From NCBI GenBank assembly GCA_031263095.1, contig JAISGI010000036.1, positions 1 through 62,581 of the forward strand: DNA of 62,581 bases, read 5' to 3'. Below, in pieces: positions 3,342 to 54,574 of the stretch. Under the pieces are notes generated by a model. It saw nothing but the letters and a program-made list of their open reading frames with translations, ran no database searches and was not told the DNA's origin. The number at the start of each line of letters is the position of its first letter. The first letter of the stretch is position 1. The translations under genes and the position numbers were made by a program. The stretch comes from Rickettsiales bacterium. GTDB taxonomy: Bacteria; Pseudomonadota; Alphaproteobacteria; Rs-D84; CACZYB01.

Positions 3342-4592
3342 ATGACAGACGAAAATACTATAAAATATTGCTCGTTTTGCGGCAAGTCTCAGCATGAGGC
3401 GAAAAAGCTTATCGCCGGGCCAAGCGTGTATATCTGCGACAACTGTATCGCGCTCTGCGCTAATATTATAAAGGAGGAGAATAAAAAGGCGCTCGAAACC
3501 GGCGCCAAGGACTCCCCCACGCCCCAGGCCATGTCCGAACACCTCGACGATTATGTGATAGGCCAGTTGCGCGCGAAAAAGACCCTCTCCGTCGCCGTCT
3601 ATAACCATTACAAACGGCTCTACAATACGGAAATCAAGAACGAGGTCGAAATAAGTAAAAGCAACATATTGCTTATCGGCCCCACCGGCTCCGGCAAGAC
3701 TTTGCTTGCAAGCACGCTTGCCAAAATCCTCGACGTTCCGTTCACTATTGCCGACGCCACCACGCTGACCGAGGCTGGATATGTCGGCGAAGATGTCGAG
3801 AATATCCTCGTCCGCCTGCTCCAGGCCACGAATTACGATGTGGCCAAGGCGCAAAAGGGCATAGTCTATATCGACGAGATAGACAAGATTTCAAGGAAGG
3901 GCGAAAATCCCTCGCTTACCCGCGATGTTTCCGGCGAAGGCGTCCAGCAGGCGCTCTTGAAGCTTATCGAGGGCACGACCGTCGCCGTCCCGCCACAGGG
4001 CGGCCGCAAACACCCGCAGCAGGAGTATATCCAGTTCGATACCTCCAACGTGCTCTTCATCTGCGGCGGCGCGTTCGCAGGCATCGACAAGGTGGTCGAG
4101 CAACGCACACGCGAAACCTCCATGGGCTTCGGCGCGAACGTCAAGGGCAAGGAGGACAGGAAAGTCTCCGAACTTCTCGTTATGATAGAGCCCGAGGATA
4201 TAGTCAAATACGGACTCATACCCGAGCTTGTCGGCCGCCTGCCGGTCATCGTCACGCTGGACGAGCTTGACGAGGAGGCACTGGTCAGCATTCTGACCGA
4301 GCCGAAAAACGCCCTCACCAAGCAGTATAAGGCATTGTTCGATATGGAGGGGGTCGAGCTTGAATTCACCGGCGACAGCCTGACCGAAATCGCGCGCCAG
4401 GCGATAAAAAGGAAAACCGGCGCACGCGGCCTGCGCTCGATTGTCGAGAATCTTCTCCTGGACATAATGTTCACCCTGCCCGATTCGAAATCCATCGCGA
4501 AAGTCGTCGTGAACAGGGAGGCTCTGCAGACAGGAGGAAAACCGATTCTCATATACGACAAGGACAAGGAATTGGAAAAGAAAATAGTTTGA
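3342..4592 (+). CDS. clpX: ATP-dependent Clp protease ATP-binding subunit ClpX
   Basis: N-terminal zinc finger CSFCGKS...CDNC, Walker A GPTGSGKT, and the characteristic ClpX motifs ([21 protein letters not shown]). Confidence 0.97.
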
Positions 4593-5754: not shown

Positions 5755-6398
5755 CCTATATATCGAGTACGTAATCTGCTTCGCCGGGTCGTACATTACA
5801 TCCGTTTGAGCAACACCCGGAGTCGTGGTCTTGTCCCAAGTCCAAAATTTATAAACCGCATAGCCGGCAGAGGAGGTGCTAAGCACAATCTCGGCATTGC
5901 TCCCGGTGCCAGTCCATTCGAGGCCGTACGCTATGATAGAGCCGCTGCTTGTAAAAAAGTTGCTCCCGTCGCCTGTCCAGCCAAGCGAATATGCGAATTC
6001 CCGGTCGAAAATGGCCACGCGCGAAACCCTCTGGTTCTGCGCTCCAATCGCAAGGTCGAAACGATAGATTCCAAGGCCAAGCACGCCTCTGCCAAGCACG
6101 GTGCCAAAATTTCCGGCCGCACTGGCGACAAGCTGCCAGCGGCTGACGGCCGGCGTCCCGATACAGGACGAAACCTCGCCAGCTGAGATACTCGGACTGC
6201 CAAGCTTTGGTGCCAGGAATTGGCATGCCTCGGACACGGGCACGGTCGCCCCCTCAGGGCATAGCTCCGGCGTAAAACACGCCGAACAGGTATAATAGTT
6301 TGATGAGTTAGAGTTGTTGGCAGATAGTAGAAGAAGTGCGAATGCTAGGTATTTAGCCTTTTGCCCCCCCCCGTACACTTTTTGTTCATATATGTCAT
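5746..6398 (-). CDS. family-A small secreted Cys-containing protein, copy A1; phase-variable and out of frame with its ATG at the assembled G9
   Basis: ATG ACA TAT ATG AAC AAA AAG TGT ACG-G9 reads MTYMNKKCTGGGKRLNT-stop. The long ORF (..QKAKYLAFALLLLSANNSNSSNYYTCSAC.. to ..IYRLN) joins that ATG only at G10 or G7. A GTG at 6378 is in frame but sits far from the SD. Confidence 0.7.
6364..6372 (-). repeat. poly-G tract (G9 on the coding strand) in the 5' codons of A1
   Basis: C9 counted directly on the + strand. Confidence 0.95.
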
Positions 6399-12057: not shown

Positions 12058-12673
12058 ATGAACAAAAATCGTACGGGGGGGGGCAAATAAGTATTTAGCT
12101 ACTGCGCTTCTCCTGATTTCCGCCAACCACGCAAACTCCACCAATTATTATACATGTACAAGCTGCGGCGAGAACCGCCTGTTCACACTGGCCGAGGCGA
12201 CAAAATGCCTTGGCGCCGACACCTCCGGCAAATGGGAAAAGATTGTCGAGGCGGAGAACGACCTGGCAAACTCCGGCAAATACAACCGGACAGGAACTCT
12301 CCCGGCGGGAATTTACCGGCTCGAGTCATACAACCGACATTACGGCCTCGGCTCGGCCACGATACAGATTTCCGGCACGAAATACTATGGCATAAACAAC
12401 TCCATTCATCAGGATACGGCAAGGATAGACATAATGAATTCCGCGGTCGCAACCGGAAACGATAGACCGGAGCATAGCGCTTTCAACTGCTCGGTGGATA
12501 TTCCGGCATATTACACTGACGGCCATTGCAACGACGCAGGCATAGCCGAGGCCGACCTTGCCAAACACAATATAAACATAGATTGGAACACTTGGCGCCA
12601 AGTACCCGGCATAACTGCCGCCAATACCGAGACCTGCCTCGGCTGCGCCGCGATTTATAGGTGGAAAGAATAA
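12058..12673 (+). CDS. family-A small secreted Cys-containing protein, copy A2; phase-variable, OFF at G9
   Basis: ATG AAC AAA AAT CGT ACG-G9 reads MNKNRTGGGK-stop. At G8 or G11 it reads MNKNRTGGANKYLATALLLISANHANSTNYYTCTSC... through to ...CAAIYRWKE. The downstream frame is open from the tract to 12673, and track ORF 12434..12673 is its tail. Confidence 0.75.
12075..12083 (+). repeat. poly-G tract G9 in the 5' codons of A2
   Basis: Counted directly. Confidence 0.95.
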
Positions 12674-12760: not shown

Positions 12761-13304
12761 ATGTTATATATGAACAAAAAGTGTACGGGGGGGGGCAAAT
12801 AAGTATCTGGCTTTAGCGCTTCTCCTAATATCGACTAACTCTCAATCTTCAAATTATTATACTTGTACCAATTGCCTAGTGCCCGAGCTGTGCGCCACAG
12901 GAGCTACGGCCGACTTCGCCAAGTATGATAAAGCGCTGAGCAGGGACGAAGCCGCCGCCGCATTCGGCACTCCGGCCAAGACGCGCTGGCAACTCGTCGC
13001 AAGCGGCAACGTCGATTCCCAACCCTATTCTATATCCTCATCCGGGGTGTATAGGATAACTGAGCGATGGTCCACCGGATTCCAGCCAAACGAATATCGC
13101 GATTCGTTCGCTTTCGCGCTCTCTTCCTCCGACGGTCAAGTAAAAATGGAGGGATGCCCACAAGTGAATCAAGGCAACGCACTTATTAGCCTCTGCAACG
13201 GCCAAGGCTCGCAAGTGCCGGGGATTTCAGACCAAGACATCGACGCCGAACTCCCACCATTTTCAGGAAGCGGATACAAATGGCAGCTATACAGGTTGCA
13301 ATAA
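12761..13304 (+). CDS. family-A small secreted Cys-containing protein, copy A3; phase-variable, OFF at G9
   Basis: ATG TTA TAT ATG AAC AAA AAG TGT ACG-G9 reads ...CTGGGK-stop. At G8 it reads ..TGGANKYLALALLLISTNSQSSNYYTCTNCLVPELCATG... through to YKWQLYRLQ, which is track ORF 12879..13304. Confidence 0.75.
12787..12795 (+). repeat. poly-G tract G9 in the 5' codons of A3
   Basis: Counted directly. Confidence 0.95.
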
Positions 13305-16644: not shown

Positions 16645-17212
16645 TTTATACAGTGCTCCATACGCCGCATTCCCAACCTGAAAGTCCGCCTTGCTTATAT
16701 TGGGAACGTTGATTATATCGGAAGTTGCACGCGCCTGCACGAGCATGTTATAGCCTCCTTTGCCCGTTTCGTATATCCAGGAATTGTATCCATAACCAGT
16801 AGAATCTTGGAAATAGTGCAATATGAGAGAATTGACCGGATTTTCAAGCACGACTCCCTCTATATGGAAATTGGAACCGTCTATTGTCGAGACAAGCATG
16901 TATATCCCGGGCGCGATGTCCGGAATGTCCATTCTGCCAAGCGCGCCTATATCCTTTTTATTCTCGCGAACTTTCGTCCATCTGGAAAAGGCCGGACTGC
17001 CAAGACAATCCGTGAACTCCTCAATGCTAAGCACGGCATTGAGCTTGCAGTCCGCGCTGCGTCCAGCATTGACACAAGCCCCCGGCACGGCGCAAGCTGT
17101 GCAGGTATAATAATTAGATGATTGAGAGTTGTTGGCAGATAGTAGGAGAAGCGTTGCGAGTACTATTACTCTATTTGCCCCCCCCCGTACGCTTTTTGTT
17201 CATATATGTCAT
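16636..17212 (-). CDS. family-A small secreted Cys-containing protein, copy A4; phase-variable, OFF at G9
   Basis: ATG ACA TAT ATG AAC AAA AAG CGT ACG-G9 reads ..RTGGGK-stop. At G8 it reads ..TGGANRVIVLATLLLLSANNSQSSNYYTCTACAVPGAC... through to GALYKLN, which is track ORF 16636..17088. Confidence 0.75.
17178..17186 (-). repeat. poly-G tract (G9 on the coding strand) in the 5' codons of A4
   Basis: C9 counted on the + strand. Confidence 0.95.
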
Positions 17213-19163: not shown

Positions 19164-19189
19164 TTGACAAATCATGGGGGGGGTAGAAT
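19164..19189 (+). promoter_or_regulatory. candidate promoter with a G8 tract inside the spacer
   Basis: TTGACA (19164-19169), then aatcat-G8 (a 14-nt spacer), then TAGAAT (19184-19189). It lies about 55 nt upstream of the SD and ATG of the gene starting at 19243. Confidence 0.45.
19176..19183 (+). repeat. poly-G tract G8, intergenic, inside the promoter spacer
   Basis: Counted directly. Confidence 0.95.
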
Positions 19190-31200: not shown

Positions 31201-32329
31201 CTATTGTATCGCCCTGACGGCATTTACGCACTCGTCGATTTCCTTGAAAAGCTTGTCCACCTCAAGCATGCCGACAACGCCCGCCGCGCCCGAGGCAAGT
31301 CCGCCGACCGCCGCCACGCCCGAGGTTATCATTCCCCCGACGCCCGAGCCAAGCTTGCCTATGCCCTTTGCTTCCTGATGGGCGAGCTTGCTCTTGACCT
31401 CGGCATCGGCCAAGGCATAGTTCTTGCCGCGATTATAATCCGCGTCTTGCAGATACTTCGCATACGCGTCATCGTCCCAAGTCCACGAAGCCATGTCCAC
31501 CGCCAGTCTCGAGTTGTCGTTGTAAGTAGCTATCAGGTTGCCCAAGGTCGAGCCATAAAGCACCGGCTTGTCGCTCGTGCAGGTGGTGGAAGCAATGGGC
31601 GCGAACTTGACGGAGGTCTCGGTAAAGGTTATGTCATCGGACGAGCAGCCCTCTATGCTGTCGTGCGCGTCGAGTATCTGGGCGGCAAGCTCGACTTGGT
31701 CGTCAAGAAGACTGTCCATATCCCTGTCTATGTCCGCTTTACTTTTGTAGTTGGCCATTACCGCGCCCTTCATTGTTTCGGGAAGCGAACCGAGCGCCGC
31801 GCCCATATCGGCGTTGTTGCCCTCTTTTATGAAAGCGTCCTCTCTGGCAATCGAGGCTTTCGCATGCTCCTCTTTCGCCTTTTTAAGATCGCTCGAGTTT
31901 TTAATCTGCCCGGCAAGGTTCAGGCCGCCGCCGATAAGGGACGCCGCACCGCCGCCTATTGAAAAGCCAAGCGCAACCTGAAGCGTCTGCTTGTCGCGTA
32001 TTTTCCCGCACGCGGTTTTCGCTTTGTTGATAAGGGCCCAAGTCTCCGCGCCCGCACCCACGCTTGCAACGGCTATTCCGACATCCCCGGCCGGAGCTTC
32101 GTAGGTCGAAGCCACAGGCTCCGCCGCAACGCTTTCCGCCGTGGGAACAGCCGCAGGATTGTTGTGTATAGCGCCGCCGCCGGCTGCAACCGCGCCACTG
32201 GAGCGCCTGGAAACAGGAGCCTTTGGCCGGTTGTCCCGCCTCTGCGCTCCGGCTTCACCGCCGATTGCCGAGATTAAAACTAAAAGGGAAAGACTATACG
32301 CCCCCCCCCGTGCACAGTTTGTTCGTCAT
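31201..32329 (-). CDS. family-B secreted glycine-zipper / coiled-coil protein, copy B1; phase-variable, OFF at G9
   Basis: ATG ACG AAC AAA CTG TGC ACG-G9 reads MTNKLCTGGGV-stop. At G8 it reads MTNKLCTGGAYSLSLLVLISAIGGEAGAQRR... and joins track ORF 31201..32115. It is paralogous to the gene at 39461..40588: both have the ACGKI motif, Gly-zipper segments, and a C-terminal ..EIDEC..A.. tail. Confidence 0.7.
32301..32309 (-). repeat. poly-G tract (G9 on the coding strand) in the 5' codons of B1
   Basis: C9 counted on the + strand. Confidence 0.95.
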
Positions 32330-37531: not shown

Positions 37532-39112
37532 GTGGCGGAGGAAAAGTACAAGGTTCTGGCGCGCAAATATCGGCCGTCCTCCCTGCCCGAGCTTATCGGG
37601 CAGGAGGTTCTGGTAAGGACGCTTACCAACGCCATAGCCCAAAACCGCCTCCACCACGCCTATATTTTCACAGGGATAAGGGGAGTAGGTAAAACCTCGA
37701 CCGCCCGCATTCTGGCCAAGTCCCTCAACTGCTCCGCCCAGGACGGGCCAAGCGTCGAACCCTGCGGCAAGTGCGAGAATTGCCAGGCGATTAAAGAAGA
37801 CCGCCACATGGACGTAATCGAAATGGACGCCGCCTCCCATACCTCGGTCGACGACATACGCGAGATTATCGACGGAGCGCAGTACAAGCCCACCATGGCC
37901 CGCTATAAGGTGTACATTATAGACGAAGTGCACATGCTCTCGAAATCCGCTTTCAACGCTATACTGAAAACGCTCGAGGAGCCGCCGCCCTACGTCAAGT
38001 TCATATTCGCCACGACCGAAATTCGCAAGGTTCCGCCGACCGTGCTATCAAGGTGCCAGCGGTTCGATTTGGCCGCGGTCGAGCCGGAGACGCTCTCCGC
38101 CCACTTCAAGAAAATCGCCAGCTTGGAGGGGATAAGCATAGACGACGACGCACTCTCGATTGTCGCCAAGGTCGCCGACGGCTCGGTCAGGGACGGGCTC
38201 TCTTTCCTCGATCAAATCATCGCCAATTCTATCGAGGATGACAAGGCCATAACCGCCGCCGACGTCGCCAAAATCCTGGGCCTCTCGGCACGCGGAGCAA
38301 CGCTCGACCTGTTCGACGCAATCGCCGCCGCCGATACCAAGGGCGCTCTCGTGATACTTGAAAACGCGCAGAAAGCAGGCGCCGACCCGGTAATGCTGCT
38401 TGGCGACTTGCTCGAGGTTGTGCATTTTCTGACCAGGACCAAGGTCCAGCCCGACTCCCTCTCCTCGCTTCCCATGACCGGGGCCGAGCAGGAACGCCTC
38501 CGCGAAATGGCGGCCAAGCTCTCGATAGCCACGCTCGCCCGCACATGGCAGATGTTGATAAAAGCCTTCGACGAAATGGCCATAGCTCCCTCGCCCGCCG
38601 CCGCGCTTGAAATGGCGGTGATAAGGATAGCGCACATCGGCACCCTGCCCTCTCCCGCCGAGGTCATAGCAAAAATCGAATCCGGCGCTTCCTCGGCTGA
38701 GGAACAAAAAAAAAAATTAGCTCTGTCGCAGGATGACGCCGCACCCACTCCGCTCTCGCTCGAAACATCCGAAGCCCTCTCCGCGCTTTTGAAATCCAAG
38801 CGCAGCTTCCTCCTTTCCCAAGACGTCGAAAAGTACGCAAGGTTTGTAGGATTTGACGGCGGCGCCCTGCGCCTGAATTTCGCGCCCTCCGCGCCCCGAG
38901 AGATTGTCTCGAACCTCAACGCCTTCTTCGCCGAAAACCATATGAACATAAAGGTGGAAAAGTCGGACGAGCCGGGCGCTCCCACGGTTGCCGAGGCCGC
39001 CGAAACCCTGTTCAACACACAGGTGGCCGAGTTTGCGTCAAACCCGATACTCAAGGAGATTCTGGAAATTTTCCCCAATTCTTATGTTGCAAAAATAGAA
39101 ACCGCGGTCTAG
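37532..39112 (+). CDS. dnaX: DNA polymerase III subunit tau (and possibly gamma through recoding)
   Basis: ARKYRP..L.ELIGQE, Walker A GIRGVGKTS, zinc module C..C..C..C, DEVHMLS, and SRC motif LSRCQRF. Confidence 0.95.
   Translation: MAEEKYKVLARKYRPSSLPELIGQEVLVRTLTNAIAQNRLHHAYIFTGIRGVGKTSTARILAKSLNCSAQDGPSVEPCGKCENCQAIKEDRHMDVIEMDAASHTSVDDIREIIDGAQYKPTMARYKVYIIDEVHMLSKSAFNAILKTLEEPPPYVKFIFATTEIRKVPPTVLSRCQRFDLAAVEPETLSAHFKKIASLEGISIDDDALSIVAKVADGSVRDGLSFLDQIIANSIEDDKAITAADVAKILGLSARGATLDLFDAIAAADTKGALVILENAQKAGADPVMLLGDLLEVVHFLTRTKVQPDSLSSLPMTGAEQERLREMAAKLSIATLARTWQMLIKAFDEMAIAPSPAAALEMAVIRIAHIGTLPSPAEVIAKIESGASSAEEQKKKLALSQDDAAPTPLSLETSEALSALLKSKRSFLLSQDVEKYARFVGFDGGALRLNFAPSAPREIVSNLNAFFAENHMNIKVEKSDEPGAPTVAEAAETLFNTQVAEFASNPILKEILEIFPNSYVAKIETAV
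38706..38716 (+). promoter_or_regulatory. A11 slippery run inside dnaX, a candidate recoding site
   Basis: The zero frame reads CAA AAA AAA AAA TTA. The +1 frame reads TAG at 38718-38720. The -1 frame reads ATT AGC TCT GTC GCA GGA TGA, ending at 38736. Confidence 0.5.
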
Positions 39113-39460: not shown

Positions 39461-40588
39461 CTATAGGGCCTTCGCCGCTTTCTGACACTCTTCTATCTCT
39501 TTCTCAAGCTGCGAGAATTGGGCAATGCCTATGCCTCCGGTGATGGCCGATGCCAACCCGCCAGCAGTCGCAAGGCCAGCGGTTATAATGCCGCCCGTCC
39601 CGGTCGCAAGCTTGCCAAGACCCTTTGGCTCTGGCCTGCCGCCGGCCTTTATTATGCCGTCTTTTTTGGCCAGCTCGGACAGTCTTTCGACAACACCCTG
39701 TTTTAATGTATCGAACTGTACTTTGCTTTCGACGATATCATCCTCCTTGAAATTTTGGAAGAAACCTTCGGGTAGCGTACCCGTAAGCTCAGAATTCGAA
39801 CTATTGTACACGCATGAGGCGGAGTACTTGACCCGTATCGAAGCTGTTACAAGTATGCCATATGTTAAAGTCTCGTCATAACTATCCAAAGCTTCTCTTA
39901 GTGATTTATAAACTTTACCGCAATCCATCTCATTACCAACAATTCCTCTGATCTTATTGGCTTCCTCATTGACATCCATTCTAATATCGCGGACAGAGGC
40001 AAGACACTCATCGATAGTAATCTCCTCGCAATTATTGGCTATGTAGTAGGAGAAAAATCTGATGTCGTAGTAATCATAATCACTATCATCATAGAAATAC
40101 CTATTTATATAGTATGCCAAGTATTCGGCGTCAAATCCAAGCCCCTCGGCGTCGCCTCCCTCCTCCTCGGCCTTCTTCTCGTCAAACCTGTTCTTCACCT
40201 GCCCGACGAAGTTGAGGCCGCCCGCAAGGGTCGAAACGCCGCCGCCCGCGACCCCGCCAATCATAAGGCCTTTAATTTGCCTAAGGTCGATTTTGCCGCA
40301 CGCGGATTTTGCCTCTCCGGAAGATTGCTGAGCTTGGGCAAGCTTGGCCTCCGAGTCCGACAGGCTTCGCCTTAGCCGGGCGATTTCGGCGTCCCTGTCT
40401 ATCGCCTGCTGCTGAAGCCTTAGGATTTCGCCGGAGTCGGCCGAGGGCTGGACTATTGGTTGGCTTGCGCCGGAGCTCCCGGGCGACCCGCGCGCGCGTT
40501 GCGCTCTTCCGGCCGACGCGCCTGCGGATACAAGGGTGAAGATAGCCAGAAAGACCAGGCTATCCGCCAATCTTCCACCCCCCCCCAT
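39461..40588 (-). CDS. family-B secreted glycine-zipper / coiled-coil protein, copy B2; the poly-G tract includes the start codon and is in frame at G9
   Basis: AT-G9-T reads ATG GGG GGG GGT GGA.., giving MGGGGRLADSLVFLAIFTLVSAGASA (a signal peptide). A weak SD (AGGA) lies 4 nt upstream. The upstream ATG at 40605 would join only at G10. Confidence 0.7.
   Translation of the reverse strand: MGGGGRLADSLVFLAIFTLVSAGASAGRAQRARGSPGSSGASQPIVQPSADSGEILRLQQQAIDRDAEIARLRRSLSDSEAKLAQAQQSSGEAKSACGKIDLRQIKGLMIGGVAGGGVSTLAGGLNFVGQVKNRFDEKKAEEEGGDAEGLGFDAEYLAYYINRYFYDDSDYDYYDIRFFSYYIANNCEEITIDECLASVRDIRMDVNEEANKIRGIVGNEMDCGKVYKSLREALDSYDETLTYGILVTASIRVKYSASCVYNSSNSELTGTLPEGFFQNFKEDDIVESKVQFDTLKQGVVERLSELAKKDGIIKAGGRPEPKGLGKLATGTGGIITAGLATAGGLASAITGGIGIAQFSQLEKEIEECQKAAKAL
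40578..40586 (-). repeat. poly-G tract (G9 on the coding strand) overlapping the B2 start codon
   Basis: C9 counted on the + strand. Confidence 0.95.
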
Positions 40589-45173: not shown

Positions 45174-46183
45174 TCGGCTATTTTAGCATTTTTCCGAAGC
45201 GATTGCAACTTCATGATTTGCTCCCACGCAGCGGCAAGCGCAAAGGACAATAGCACGCAGTACACGGCGTAATGCCGCTTGCCAATCGTGAAATGGCCGA
45301 GTATGGCAAACGCCGCCGCTTGGAACACATACGCGCCATAGCAGTATTTCGATACATGCCCAACCCACGAAAATCTGTTCAGCCATGAAAATATCGCCCC
45401 CGCCGACGTCGCCATGCCAAGCAAAAGAATGGAGAATACGGCGACAAGCTGTATGTCCAAACTGCCTGCGCTTTTCGAGAAAATCAACGCGTTGAAGATA
45501 AAGCCAAGACCAAGGACGCTCGCCGCTGTCCATACCCAATATCCGCCCCGCGCGGGTTTGATGTGCACCGCTATTTCGCGCAGGATTATGCCAAGTCCCA
45601 TGCCGGCGACGGCGCGCGCAATCGACCTGGGAAAGGCATTGAACATCACGCCGGCATGCACGCCCAAGCTGCCGAAATTCGCTTCTAACGCCGTATAGCA
45701 AAGCCAAGCAACAACGGCCGTAAGGAACAGAAGTTTCCTCCGTTCGAAATGCAAAAGCGCGAAATAGAACAGCATACTTGTCCAGAAATACGCACACACA
45801 AACCACGCGAAGAAATTCACGCTACGGCCAGGCAGTCCTACGTTCACAAGCATAAGCAGGCTCGATATGATGTCTTTGTTCCAATCCTGGCCAAGCGCCA
45901 GCAAAAGGATTATGCTTGCCGCATAGGCTGGCCACAGCCGCCAGAACCGCCGCAACGCGAACTCCTTGAACGTAAGCGGCCGCCGGATAAACCCGTCGTA
46001 CAGCAGGTATCCGCCTATTATAAAGAAAAAATCTACTATTATATCGGTCGGGCGCAGGTATCGGGCTTCCCACCACCTGTCGAATACCCCGTGCCTAAGT
46101 ATTATAAGTATTGTGAACAGGATCCGGAGGAATTCTATAGACCATATTGCCCCCCCCTTATGTTTATCCTGTAATTTCAACAT
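45170..46183 (-). CDS. acyltransferase family 3 (OafA/YrhL-like) membrane protein; G8 tract in codons 9-12, in frame as assembled
   Basis: It starts MLKLQDKHKGGAIWSIEFLRILFTILIILRHG and has many transmembrane segments. The tract reads AAG GGG GGG GCA. Confidence 0.8.
   Translation of the reverse strand: MLKLQDKHKGGAIWSIEFLRILFTILIILRHGVFDRWWEARYLRPTDIIVDFFFIIGGYLLYDGFIRRPLTFKEFALRRFWRLWPAYAASIILLLALGQDWNKDIISSLLMLVNVGLPGRSVNFFAWFVCAYFWTSMLFYFALLHFERRKLLFLTAVVAWLCYTALEANFGSLGVHAGVMFNAFPRSIARAVAGMGLGIILREIAVHIKPARGGYWVWTAASVLGLGFIFNALIFSKSAGSLDIQLVAVFSILLLGMATSAGAIFSWLNRFSWVGHVSKYCYGAYVFQAAAFAILGHFTIGKRHYAVYCVLLSFALAAAWEQIMKLQSLRKNAKIAE
46150..46157 (-). repeat. poly-G tract (G8 on the coding strand) in the acyltransferase 5' codons
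   Basis: C8 counted on the + strand. Confidence 0.95.
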
Positions 46184-53946: not shown

Positions 53947-54574
53947 ATGCGAACTTCAAAACTACCCCCCCCCATTCGTCGCCGCGATTCTCTGCCTGAT
54001 CTCCTTGGTCGCCCGCGCAAGCGTCAAGCCGCAGGCGACGTTTTCCCCGGCCGAGCTTGCTAGGTCGATAACCGGCTCGCGCGCCCAGGAAGTAAAGATT
54101 GACGAACAGCTGAAAGCCCAGGTCGCGGCCGTCAGACAGGCCTCCGAGAATTTCAAGGCCGCCCAACTCGCCTACGCCGAAAAACTTAAATCCATAAAGA
54201 ATTCCATAGCCGAGCTGAAAAACAAGAAACGGGGTATCGGCAAGGATAGGAAAAAACTGAACCGCGAGCTTTCAAGAACAGGCCAGAACATCAAACGCAG
54301 ATACGGCGCCCTGAACCGCACGGGCGGGAAATCTTCGGCGGAATATACAGCCGTCAAGGCCGAGGTCGAACGCTACAACCAGGCGGTAAAACAGATAAAC
54401 GAGCAAAAACGCAACATCGCGGCCCTCAAGTCCGCCGAGCAGCGTATCAAGCTCTTCGACAAGGCCGCCGCAAGACAATCCTCGCACTCCGACCGCTCCG
54501 CCGACAAAATGGCCGACCGGCTCGCCACTGTCCAAGACGCGGTCGATGGCCTTCGCGGCGATATAGGAATATGA
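53947..54574 (+). CDS. secreted basic coiled-coil protein; phase-variable, with C9 out of frame with the SD-linked ATG
   Basis: SD AGGAAAGAG lies upstream of ATG 53947. At C9 it reads MRTSKLPPPIRRRDS... and stops after 38 codons. At C8 it reads MRTSKLPPPFVAAILCLISLVARA, a signal peptide joined to the 200-aa ORF. The track start GTG 53942 overlaps the pilin stop codon. Confidence 0.6.
53965..53973 (+). repeat. poly-C tract C9 in the 5' codons
   Basis: Counted directly. Confidence 0.95.

Follow-up and report, generated by a model that had tools for sequence, protein, structure and literature searches.

The dnaX gene, which encodes the DNA polymerase III subunits tau and gamma, contains an unbroken run of eleven adenines (A11) in the contig JAISGI010000036.1 of a Rickettsiales bacterium (assembly GCA_031263095.1), whose 62,581 nt are referred to here as the window. 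This run is very probably a functional tau/gamma recoding site. It is also likely, although with more room for doubt, that the site is conserved and programmed, that it supplies two clamp-loader subunits from one gene, and that transcriptional slippage is its main mechanism. For the window and its clade alike, slippage presumably occurs, is mainly transcriptional, and leads to two products that are both used. The evidence consists of the position of the run within the gene, its conservation at the homologous codon in relatives, and the frame in which these relatives encode the tau-specific domain.

The A11 run and the frame of tau in relatives

Read in the zero frame, dnaX of the window encodes full-length tau of 57.0 kDa, which is the templated product. 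The protein comprises the Pfam families PF13177, PF22608, PF12169, and PF12362, and gamma/tau chains of Escherichia coli in the PDB match it with E ~1e-85 over amino acids 5-375/418, while the alignment to the crystallised E. coli gamma constructs stops at query amino acid ~367-375. The run occupies amino acids 392-395 and lies in a linker ~11 codons past domain III and before PF12362, the C-terminal domain of alphaproteobacterial tau. Domain III is the last domain kept in the gamma-like product, and PF12362 is absent from it. Because of these Pfam and PDB boundaries, a short product of 395-401 amino acids would keep the whole clamp-loader core and lose the tau-specific part (Table 1).

Codon 392 begins at position 38,705, from where the zero frame reads CAA AAA AAA AAA TTA GCT CTG TCG CAG GAT GAC. 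Loss of one A, or a +1 shift, results in CAA AAA AAA AAT TAG with a stop after one codon, and gain of one A, or a -1 shift, results in AAA ATT AGC TCT GTC GCA GGA TGA with a stop after six codons. An earlier note on this DNA, made from the letters alone, had placed the run at codons 392-395 of 526 just past the clamp-loader core, had read these two stops and had predicted gamma-like truncated products of ~43 kDa. The placement is exact to the base and agrees with the Pfam boundaries, both stops lie where they had been read, and the computed masses are 42.8 and 43.3 kDa. The run is the longest homopolymer of the window, which has a guanine-plus-cytosine (GC) content of 55%; the next A/T run has 8 nt. 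In the genes of the window, 39% of the Lys codons are AAA, 34% of the Gln codons are CAA, and 2.8% of the Leu codons are TTA. From this usage, an all-A sequence for QKKK is expected by chance with P ~0.02, and the AAT TAG stop follows immediately because the rare Leu codon TTA stands after the run.

For comparison at the DNA level, 15 distinct clade loci were used, the window among them, with GC contents from 28% to 64%. Sampling of the clade rested on 12 exact-protein look-ups and is biased towards clusters picked by the authors; a profile search of metagenome contigs with an alignment of the tau C-terminus yielded two loci only. An unbroken run of A9-A11 is found at the homologous codon in all 15 loci, including ten with GC contents of 53-64%. 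In these ten GC-rich loci, only 42% of the Lys codons in dnaX outside the run are AAA and 58% are AAG, and the run is the sole A/T run of at least 8 nt in each of them. Conservation of the run and of the flanking stops had been named in the earlier note as a check on the proposal, and relatives encoding the lysines with mixed AAA/AAG codons as an outcome that would speak against it; such relatives were not found among the 15 loci, the ten GC-rich ones included.

The reading frame that the DNA connects to the run differs within the clade. Tau is in frame in three loci, namely the window (A11), L088 (A10), and L089 (A10). Nine loci, all with A10, need the loss of one or the gain of two nt for tau, and their zero frame reads QKKN(N/S)-stop or similar. 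Tau of the remaining three, L090 (A11), L098 (A11), and L093 (A9), needs the gain of one or the loss of two nt. The DNA-encoded frame is gamma in these 12 of the 15 loci, with a stop 0-5 codons (0-15 nt) past the run. In such loci with two open reading frames (ORFs), the gamma and tau frames are often jointly open over just 14-50 nt, and the run always lies inside this interval. An ...A-TAG(C) triplet after the run is common to the window and the relatives L002, L088, L090, and L097. Two close pairs differ in run length only: L097 (A10) and L090 (A11), whose proteins are 82% identical and whose flanks are identical, and L001 (A10) and L098 (A11). When the N-terminal domains are placed in a neighbour-joining tree, the three in-frame loci fall into one sub-clade, and the loci of the +1 state are nested separately among those of the -1 state. 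Therefore, the DNA-encoded frame has switched at least three times while the run persisted.

The same pattern is seen in the nearest protein clusters (58-69% identity). About 41 of these 44 clusters have 387-400 amino acids, lack PF12362 in the protein search, and terminate at the homologous motif ...E(V/A)QKK(N/K)x-stop. The full length is reached by no more than three proteins, namely that of the window, P0002, and P0003.

In the 12 two-ORF loci, a homologous PF12362 domain is encoded out of frame, and pairwise ratios of nonsynonymous to synonymous substitution rates (dN/dS) of 0.05-0.47 indicate purifying selection on this tau-specific region. Independent translation of the C-terminal ORF, as from a split gene, was considered and rejected because no conserved start codon or ribosome-binding site for it was found in these loci. 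L006 has no ATG, GTG, or TTG in the first 60 codons of the tau-frame region, and the first start candidates of L095, at codon 58, and of L087, L091, and L096, at codons 38-43, all lie inside the conserved domain. Since the tau domain is under selection and has neither a conserved start nor a ribosome-binding site, it has to be produced fused to the N-terminal 390 residues. The A-run is the only place for the frame change in the two-ORF loci. Of the two DnaX forms, tau is the essential one (bioRxiv 10.1101/2022.11.10.516041), and as it is reachable only by a frame change in the run, recoding is obligatory in most of the clade. About 40 clusters (P0004-P0038, P0057, P0065, P0110) are annotated as a "DNA polymerase III subunit gamma/tau" of 387-400 amino acids, and these genes are followed by a separate DUF3646 ORF of 95-140 amino acids whose predicted start codon varies. 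Such pairs are most likely single recoded genes mis-annotated as two, and the ~40 public clusters should be annotated as one recoded gene each.

Outside the clade, 80 alphaproteobacterial dnaX loci among the matches listed, all with at most 55% identity, served as an outgroup. A run of at least nine As at the equivalent position occurs in one of these 80 loci, with A9 in Marinicaulis. This in-frame run lies at ~codon 384 of dnaX in a metagenome-assembled genome of Marinicaulis sp. with 56% GC (JAJFGE010000134.1; L054, positions 4152-4160) in the context TTA AAA AAA AAC CGT GA; A10 would read KKKP-stop, and a stop of the -1 frame follows two codons on. A hairpin of 7 base pairs (AAGGCCT-TGA-AGGCCTT, -9.4 kcal/mol) directly adjoins it. 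The Marinicaulis run is possibly an independent Thermus-type site; the other Maricaulales loci of the outgroup set have no such A-run.

Concerning the clade itself, its DnaX cores are 58-69% identical, yet genomic GC spans 28% to 64% (L001-L006, L087-L098, and the window). The order PBP5-tmk-holB-tatD is found upstream of dnaX in several relatives of both GC groups (L001, L002, L006, L090), fabI lies upstream in the window, and ybaB follows dnaX in nearly all clade loci. The source labels of these loci are "Alphaproteobacteria bacterium" or "Rickettsiales bacterium" only.

Table 1. Positions of dnaX, its recoding-related features and the C/G tracts in the window, with predicted peptides
Feature	Position	Strand	Remarks
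dnaX (DNA polymerase III tau/gamma)	37532..39112	+	526 codons, GTG start; ORF list, Pfam, PDB match
Domain III (collar) of clamp-loader core	38249..38674	+	PF12169, amino acids 240-381, E = 1.2e-39
Candidate nascent-RNA hairpin TTCCTC-GGCT-GAGGAA	38689..38704	+	folding free energy (dG) -7.2 kcal/mol, ends 1 nt before run
A11 slippery run, putative recoding site	38706..38716	+	codons 392-395, AA AAA AAA AAA after the C of codon 392
TAG stop, A10 (or A13) transcripts or +1 shift	38718..38720	+	...EEQKKN-stop, 395 amino acids, 42.8 kDa
TGA stop, A12 (or A9) transcripts or -1 shift	38734..38736	+	...QKKKISSVAG-stop, 401 amino acids, 43.3 kDa
Tau-specific C-terminal domain (PF12362/DUF3646)	38765..39097	+	Pfam E = 6.8e-16, amino acids 412-522
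Predicted tau junction peptide of window			...QKKKLALSQDDAAPTPLSLETSEALSALLK
Predicted gamma C-termini of window			...EEQKKN and ...QKKKISSVAG
Predicted fusion peptide, two-ORF relative L002			QKK(K)IASHIISGSLFEEVE...
C/G tracts	6364-6372, 12075-12083, 12787-12795, 17178-17186, 32301-32309, 40578-40586, 46150-46157		
Further C/G tracts	19176-19183, 53965-53973		

Proposed mechanism of the frame change and rival explanations

In the proposed mechanism, faithful A11 transcripts, as well as those with three As fewer or more (A8/A14), would encode full-length tau of 526 amino acids, in which a short linker connects domains I-III with the C-terminal domain. RNA polymerase would slip on the 11 rA:dT pairs of the run, which exceed the RNA:DNA hybrid of 9-10 base pairs, and a mixed transcript population would result, in which the run has gained at least one A or has lost As. 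Transcripts with A10 or A13 would end at the TAG and those with A12 or A9 at the TGA stop, and both slipped classes would give rise to a gamma-like protein of ~43 kDa with the full clamp-loader core and no tau-specific domain. Slippage may be enhanced by a small nascent-RNA hairpin that ends 1 nt before the run, and sliding of ribosomes on A11 could raise the amount of short product.

A transcriptional mechanism of the Thermus type had already been preferred in the earlier note. Slippage of RNA polymerase is favoured because the sign of the shift varies at one orthologous site and because stimulators of the E. coli type are absent. Mixed shift directions at one orthologous site have been used as a criterion for transcriptional realignment over programmed ribosomal frameshifting (PRF) (Antonov et al. 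2013, PMC3711429). Runs of at least nine A/T slip efficiently in bacteria, and A9 in dnaX of Thermus leads to ~50% gamma (PMC1088944; PMC5009743). As to stimulators, no consistent downstream stem-loop of the E. coli type was found in 13 loci, and the 45 nt downstream of the run in the window form a weak fold (dG -4.9, 91st percentile of its own gene). An upstream Shine-Dalgarno (SD) sequence at ~10 nt was not found either; SD-like motifs occur in three of the 13 loci, with a spacing that is wrong for -1 PRF. The heptamer A_AAA_AAA is in phase in the window; in E. coli it is reported to shift far less readily than A_AAA_AAG (Atkins et al., PMC5009743). No site resembling an intrinsic terminator was found near the run.

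Alternatively, the frame change could be mainly translational, with ribosomes shifting or sliding on the A-run (A_AAA_AAA, slippage of tRNA-Lys) of an mRNA that reproduces A11 faithfully. Such a process is known from E. coli, where dnaX uses -1 PRF on A_AAA_AAG (PMC3711429; PMC5009743) and where ribosomes slide robustly on A11, with truncated products ending at out-of-frame stops (Koutmou 2015, PMC4363877). The run of the window is A11 as well, and an SD-like GAGGA, which is contained in the candidate hairpin, is located 2-3 nt upstream of it. Most relatives, however, have A10 or A9, on which little sliding takes place in E. coli (PMC4363877), yet their essential tau needs a frame change. Moreover, the direction of the shift that is needed varies from one orthologue to another (0, +1, or -1/+2), and neither a conserved stem-loop nor SD-like motifs at a suitable distance accompany the run. 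A mainly translational frame change is thus regarded as unlikely. The ribosomal and the transcriptional mechanism are not mutually exclusive, and by analogy with E. coli a translational contribution is plausible in the window with its A11 and less so in the A10 relatives.

Several observations weigh against a conserved site that operates mainly by transcriptional slippage. Slippage in Thermus mainly adds As (PMC5009743), and for this reason the commonest type of the clade, with A10 and tau at A9/A12, needs either an insertion of two nt or a deletion. The former should be less frequent, which fits poorly with a need for abundant tau. In the clade, either slippage works very efficiently and in both directions, or another process contributes. 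In the AT-rich relatives, conservation of the run is less telling because AAA is the default Lys codon (73-91% of Lys) and other A/T9-10 runs lie nearby. The rule of stops in both alternative frames is not universal, as the insertion frame of L089 has no nearby stop, and homopolymer errors could account for some of the A10/A11 differences seen from one metagenome assembly to another. Finally, the rarity of the run by itself was rejected as an argument, since dinucleotide-preserving shuffles of the window contain 0.85 A10 matches on average and 21 of 100 reach the observed count of two. The real argument for the site is comparative and consists in the position and conservation of the run, not in its occurrence. 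With respect to L089 (A10 at positions 1131-1140, protein P0003), a one-A insertion leads to a protein of 554 amino acids with an out-of-frame tail, and a gamma-like product (KKNPA-stop) is obtained from the deletion frame only.

A similar reservation applies to the candidate hairpin upstream of the run. Nascent-RNA stem-loops next to a slip motif are a documented stimulator of slippage (Penno et al. 2015, as cited in PMC5009743). Within dnaX of the window, only 2.6% of positions have a hairpin of the same quality that ends 0-3 nt upstream of them, and analogous hairpins formed by different sequences occur in seven of 12 clade loci tested as well as in the Marinicaulis outgroup. The other five clade loci, however, have no hairpin when judged by this rule, no consensus fold upstream of the run emerged from RNAalifold, and covariation in a fixed register is weak, with 64% of cells pairing and 30 of 500 shuffles as good. 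Because it is not universal, has no RNAalifold consensus and covaries weakly, the hairpin is a lead only, recurrent rather than conserved, and its role as a slippage stimulator is suggestive only.

Starting from transcriptional slippage, a more far-reaching reading appears possible rather than probable. Run length (A9, A10, A11) may be a freely evolving dial for the tau:gamma ratio, slippage being so efficient that in most species essential tau would come only from non-templated transcripts (+2 insertions or -1 deletions), aided by the abutting nascent-RNA hairpin. If this is true, the clade represents a natural, phylogenetically replicated series for the tuning of RNA-polymerase slippage and brings the independent routes to gamma in one bacterial class to three.

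Another explanation regards the run of the window as an evolutionary relic or an incidental KKK linker, with only tau being needed and slipped products being tolerated noise. The single intact ORF of the window, the shuffles in which such a run is not improbable, and the missing nearby stop in one alternative frame of L089, a member of the same sub-clade, would all be in line with this. Nevertheless, the three in-frame lineages keep A10-A11 though synonymous sites are saturated (dS of at least 1), and AAG is preferred in two of them (the window and L089, with 40-42% AAA; L088 has 79%). The window and L088 also share the rare TTA-G context with a stop one codon past the run, and coding regions generally select against long A-runs (PMC1088944; PMC4363877). 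A relic is therefore quite improbable.

That the run-length differences arise at the DNA level, by sequencing or assembly error or by slipped-strand phase variation, and that the two-ORF genes are artefacts or population variants, is a very remote prospect: homopolymers are error-prone, the data are metagenome assemblies, and homopolymers elsewhere in the genome apparently switch at the DNA level (the poly-G contingency loci below), but an identical out-of-frame A10 protein (P0022) is known from 23 contigs in independent samples, P0008, P0005, and P0110 have several members of identical length, ~41 independent clusters terminate at the motif, and a gamma-only DNA state of an essential gene would not be viable without recoding. 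In addition, DNA of the majority flank type does not encode tau whether the run is A10 or A11, so that a single-base error cannot restore tau in the A10 loci.

Comparison with known routes to gamma

The dnaX gene of Thermus thermophilus (Larsen et al. 2000; summarised in PMC1088944 and PMC5009743) shares with the window a single tau ORF with an A-run of at least nine past the core and stops near the run in both alternative frames, so that gamma is expected unless the number of As is the templated one +/-3n. The run of the window follows domains I-III, precedes the tau-specific domain, and is conserved at the nucleotide level in relatives. The Thermus-type geometry claimed in the earlier note, with a sufficiently long A-run, tau in the zero frame, near stops in both other frames and a site past domains I-III, is thereby borne out. 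Differences concern the run itself (A11 in the window, A9 in Thermus), the tau C-terminal domain (PF12362), which is unrelated, and the lineage, which is an uncultured mesophilic alphaproteobacterium. Furthermore, the run of the window lies three-quarters through the gene, its clade orthologues have the run out of frame with tau, and slippage is here a prediction from sequence. The window can be assigned to the Thermus-type dnaX layout, of which it has all features that are defined at the sequence level, and the in-frame sub-clade is a minority.

The layout of the 12 two-ORF clade loci is the same as that of the two-ORF dnaX genes with A10 reported for Chlorobi, Bacteroidetes, and Verrucomicrobia (Antonov et al. 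2013, PMC3711429), from which the window itself differs by its single ORF of 526 codons. Every published case has a -1 frameshift in the DNA, with tau needing the gain of one nt, whereas tau is in the +1 frame (needing -1/+2 nt) in nine of the 12 clade loci and in the -1 frame in three. No alphaproteobacterium is among the nine A10 genes of Figure S3 or the three species with shorter runs in that study, which together cover 12 of its 17 genes.

In E. coli, -1 PRF in dnaX depends on A_AAA_AAG together with an upstream SD sequence and a downstream stem-loop (PMC3711429; PMC5009743). The gene, the outcome of tau plus gamma and a slippery sequence of Lys codons are common to both systems. In contrast to E. 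coli, the window has no SD at ~10 nt, the clade has no conserved downstream stem-loop, the heptamer ends with A instead of G, and clade orthologues need shifts in different directions. The position of the site differs as well, as it is ~60 residues past domain III in E. coli and ~11 codons past the Pfam match of domain III in the window.

The only characterised alphaproteobacterial route to gamma is the proteolysis of DnaX by ClpXP in Caulobacter crescentus (Vass & Chien). Tau of this organism is of the PF12362 type, as in the window, but its processing is post-translational and needs no slippery run. Proteolysis of the Caulobacter type is possible in the window; it cannot make tau in the two-ORF relatives. 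Rescue of out-of-frame genes by polymerase slippage at A-runs is also known from the AT-rich genomes of insect endosymbionts (Buchnera, Blochmannia), as cited in PMC5009743. The lesions of endosymbionts are scattered, non-conserved, and degenerative, whereas here one site at a functional domain boundary is affected throughout the clade, including genomes with 53-64% GC.

For 30 years it has been asked for what reason bacteria retain DnaX in two forms, and the chief argument that this matters is that gamma has independent origins. To these origins, the present analysis adds an uncultured alphaproteobacterial clade with one slippery site that occurs in each of the three frame states. Recoding of this kind has been described from Thermus and a small number of other phyla, and the clade is a new case within the alphaproteobacterial class; no alphaproteobacterial case of run recoding in dnaX was found in the literature searched. 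[quoted passage not shown] It also provides a comparative series for slippage efficiency in relation to run length and context, and for tuning by upstream hairpins.

Poly-G/C tracts in the window

An Rfam search of both strands of the 62,581-nt window found no family at the gathering score (no tRNA, rRNA, riboswitch, or other known RNA). The C/G homopolymers of the window show a bimodal length distribution with almost none of 6-7 nt and nine tracts of 8-9 nt (Table 1), seven of which sit 5-8 codons past a ribosome-binding site and ATG. Four of the tract genes form a paralogous family starting with MNKK(C/R)TGGG, and their products are Cys-rich, signal-peptide-like proteins of 177-214 amino acids. 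The G9 genes are OFF as assembled, encoding 10-50 amino acids, and G8 or G10 opens ORFs of 177-381 amino acids; the assembled state of the C8 tract at 46150-46157 is ON, with 337 amino acids. One of the tract genes (39461-40588, minus strand) adjoins ybaB, just downstream of dnaX. By their sequence, the tract genes resemble phase-variable contingency loci, and this hints at a life in association with a host.

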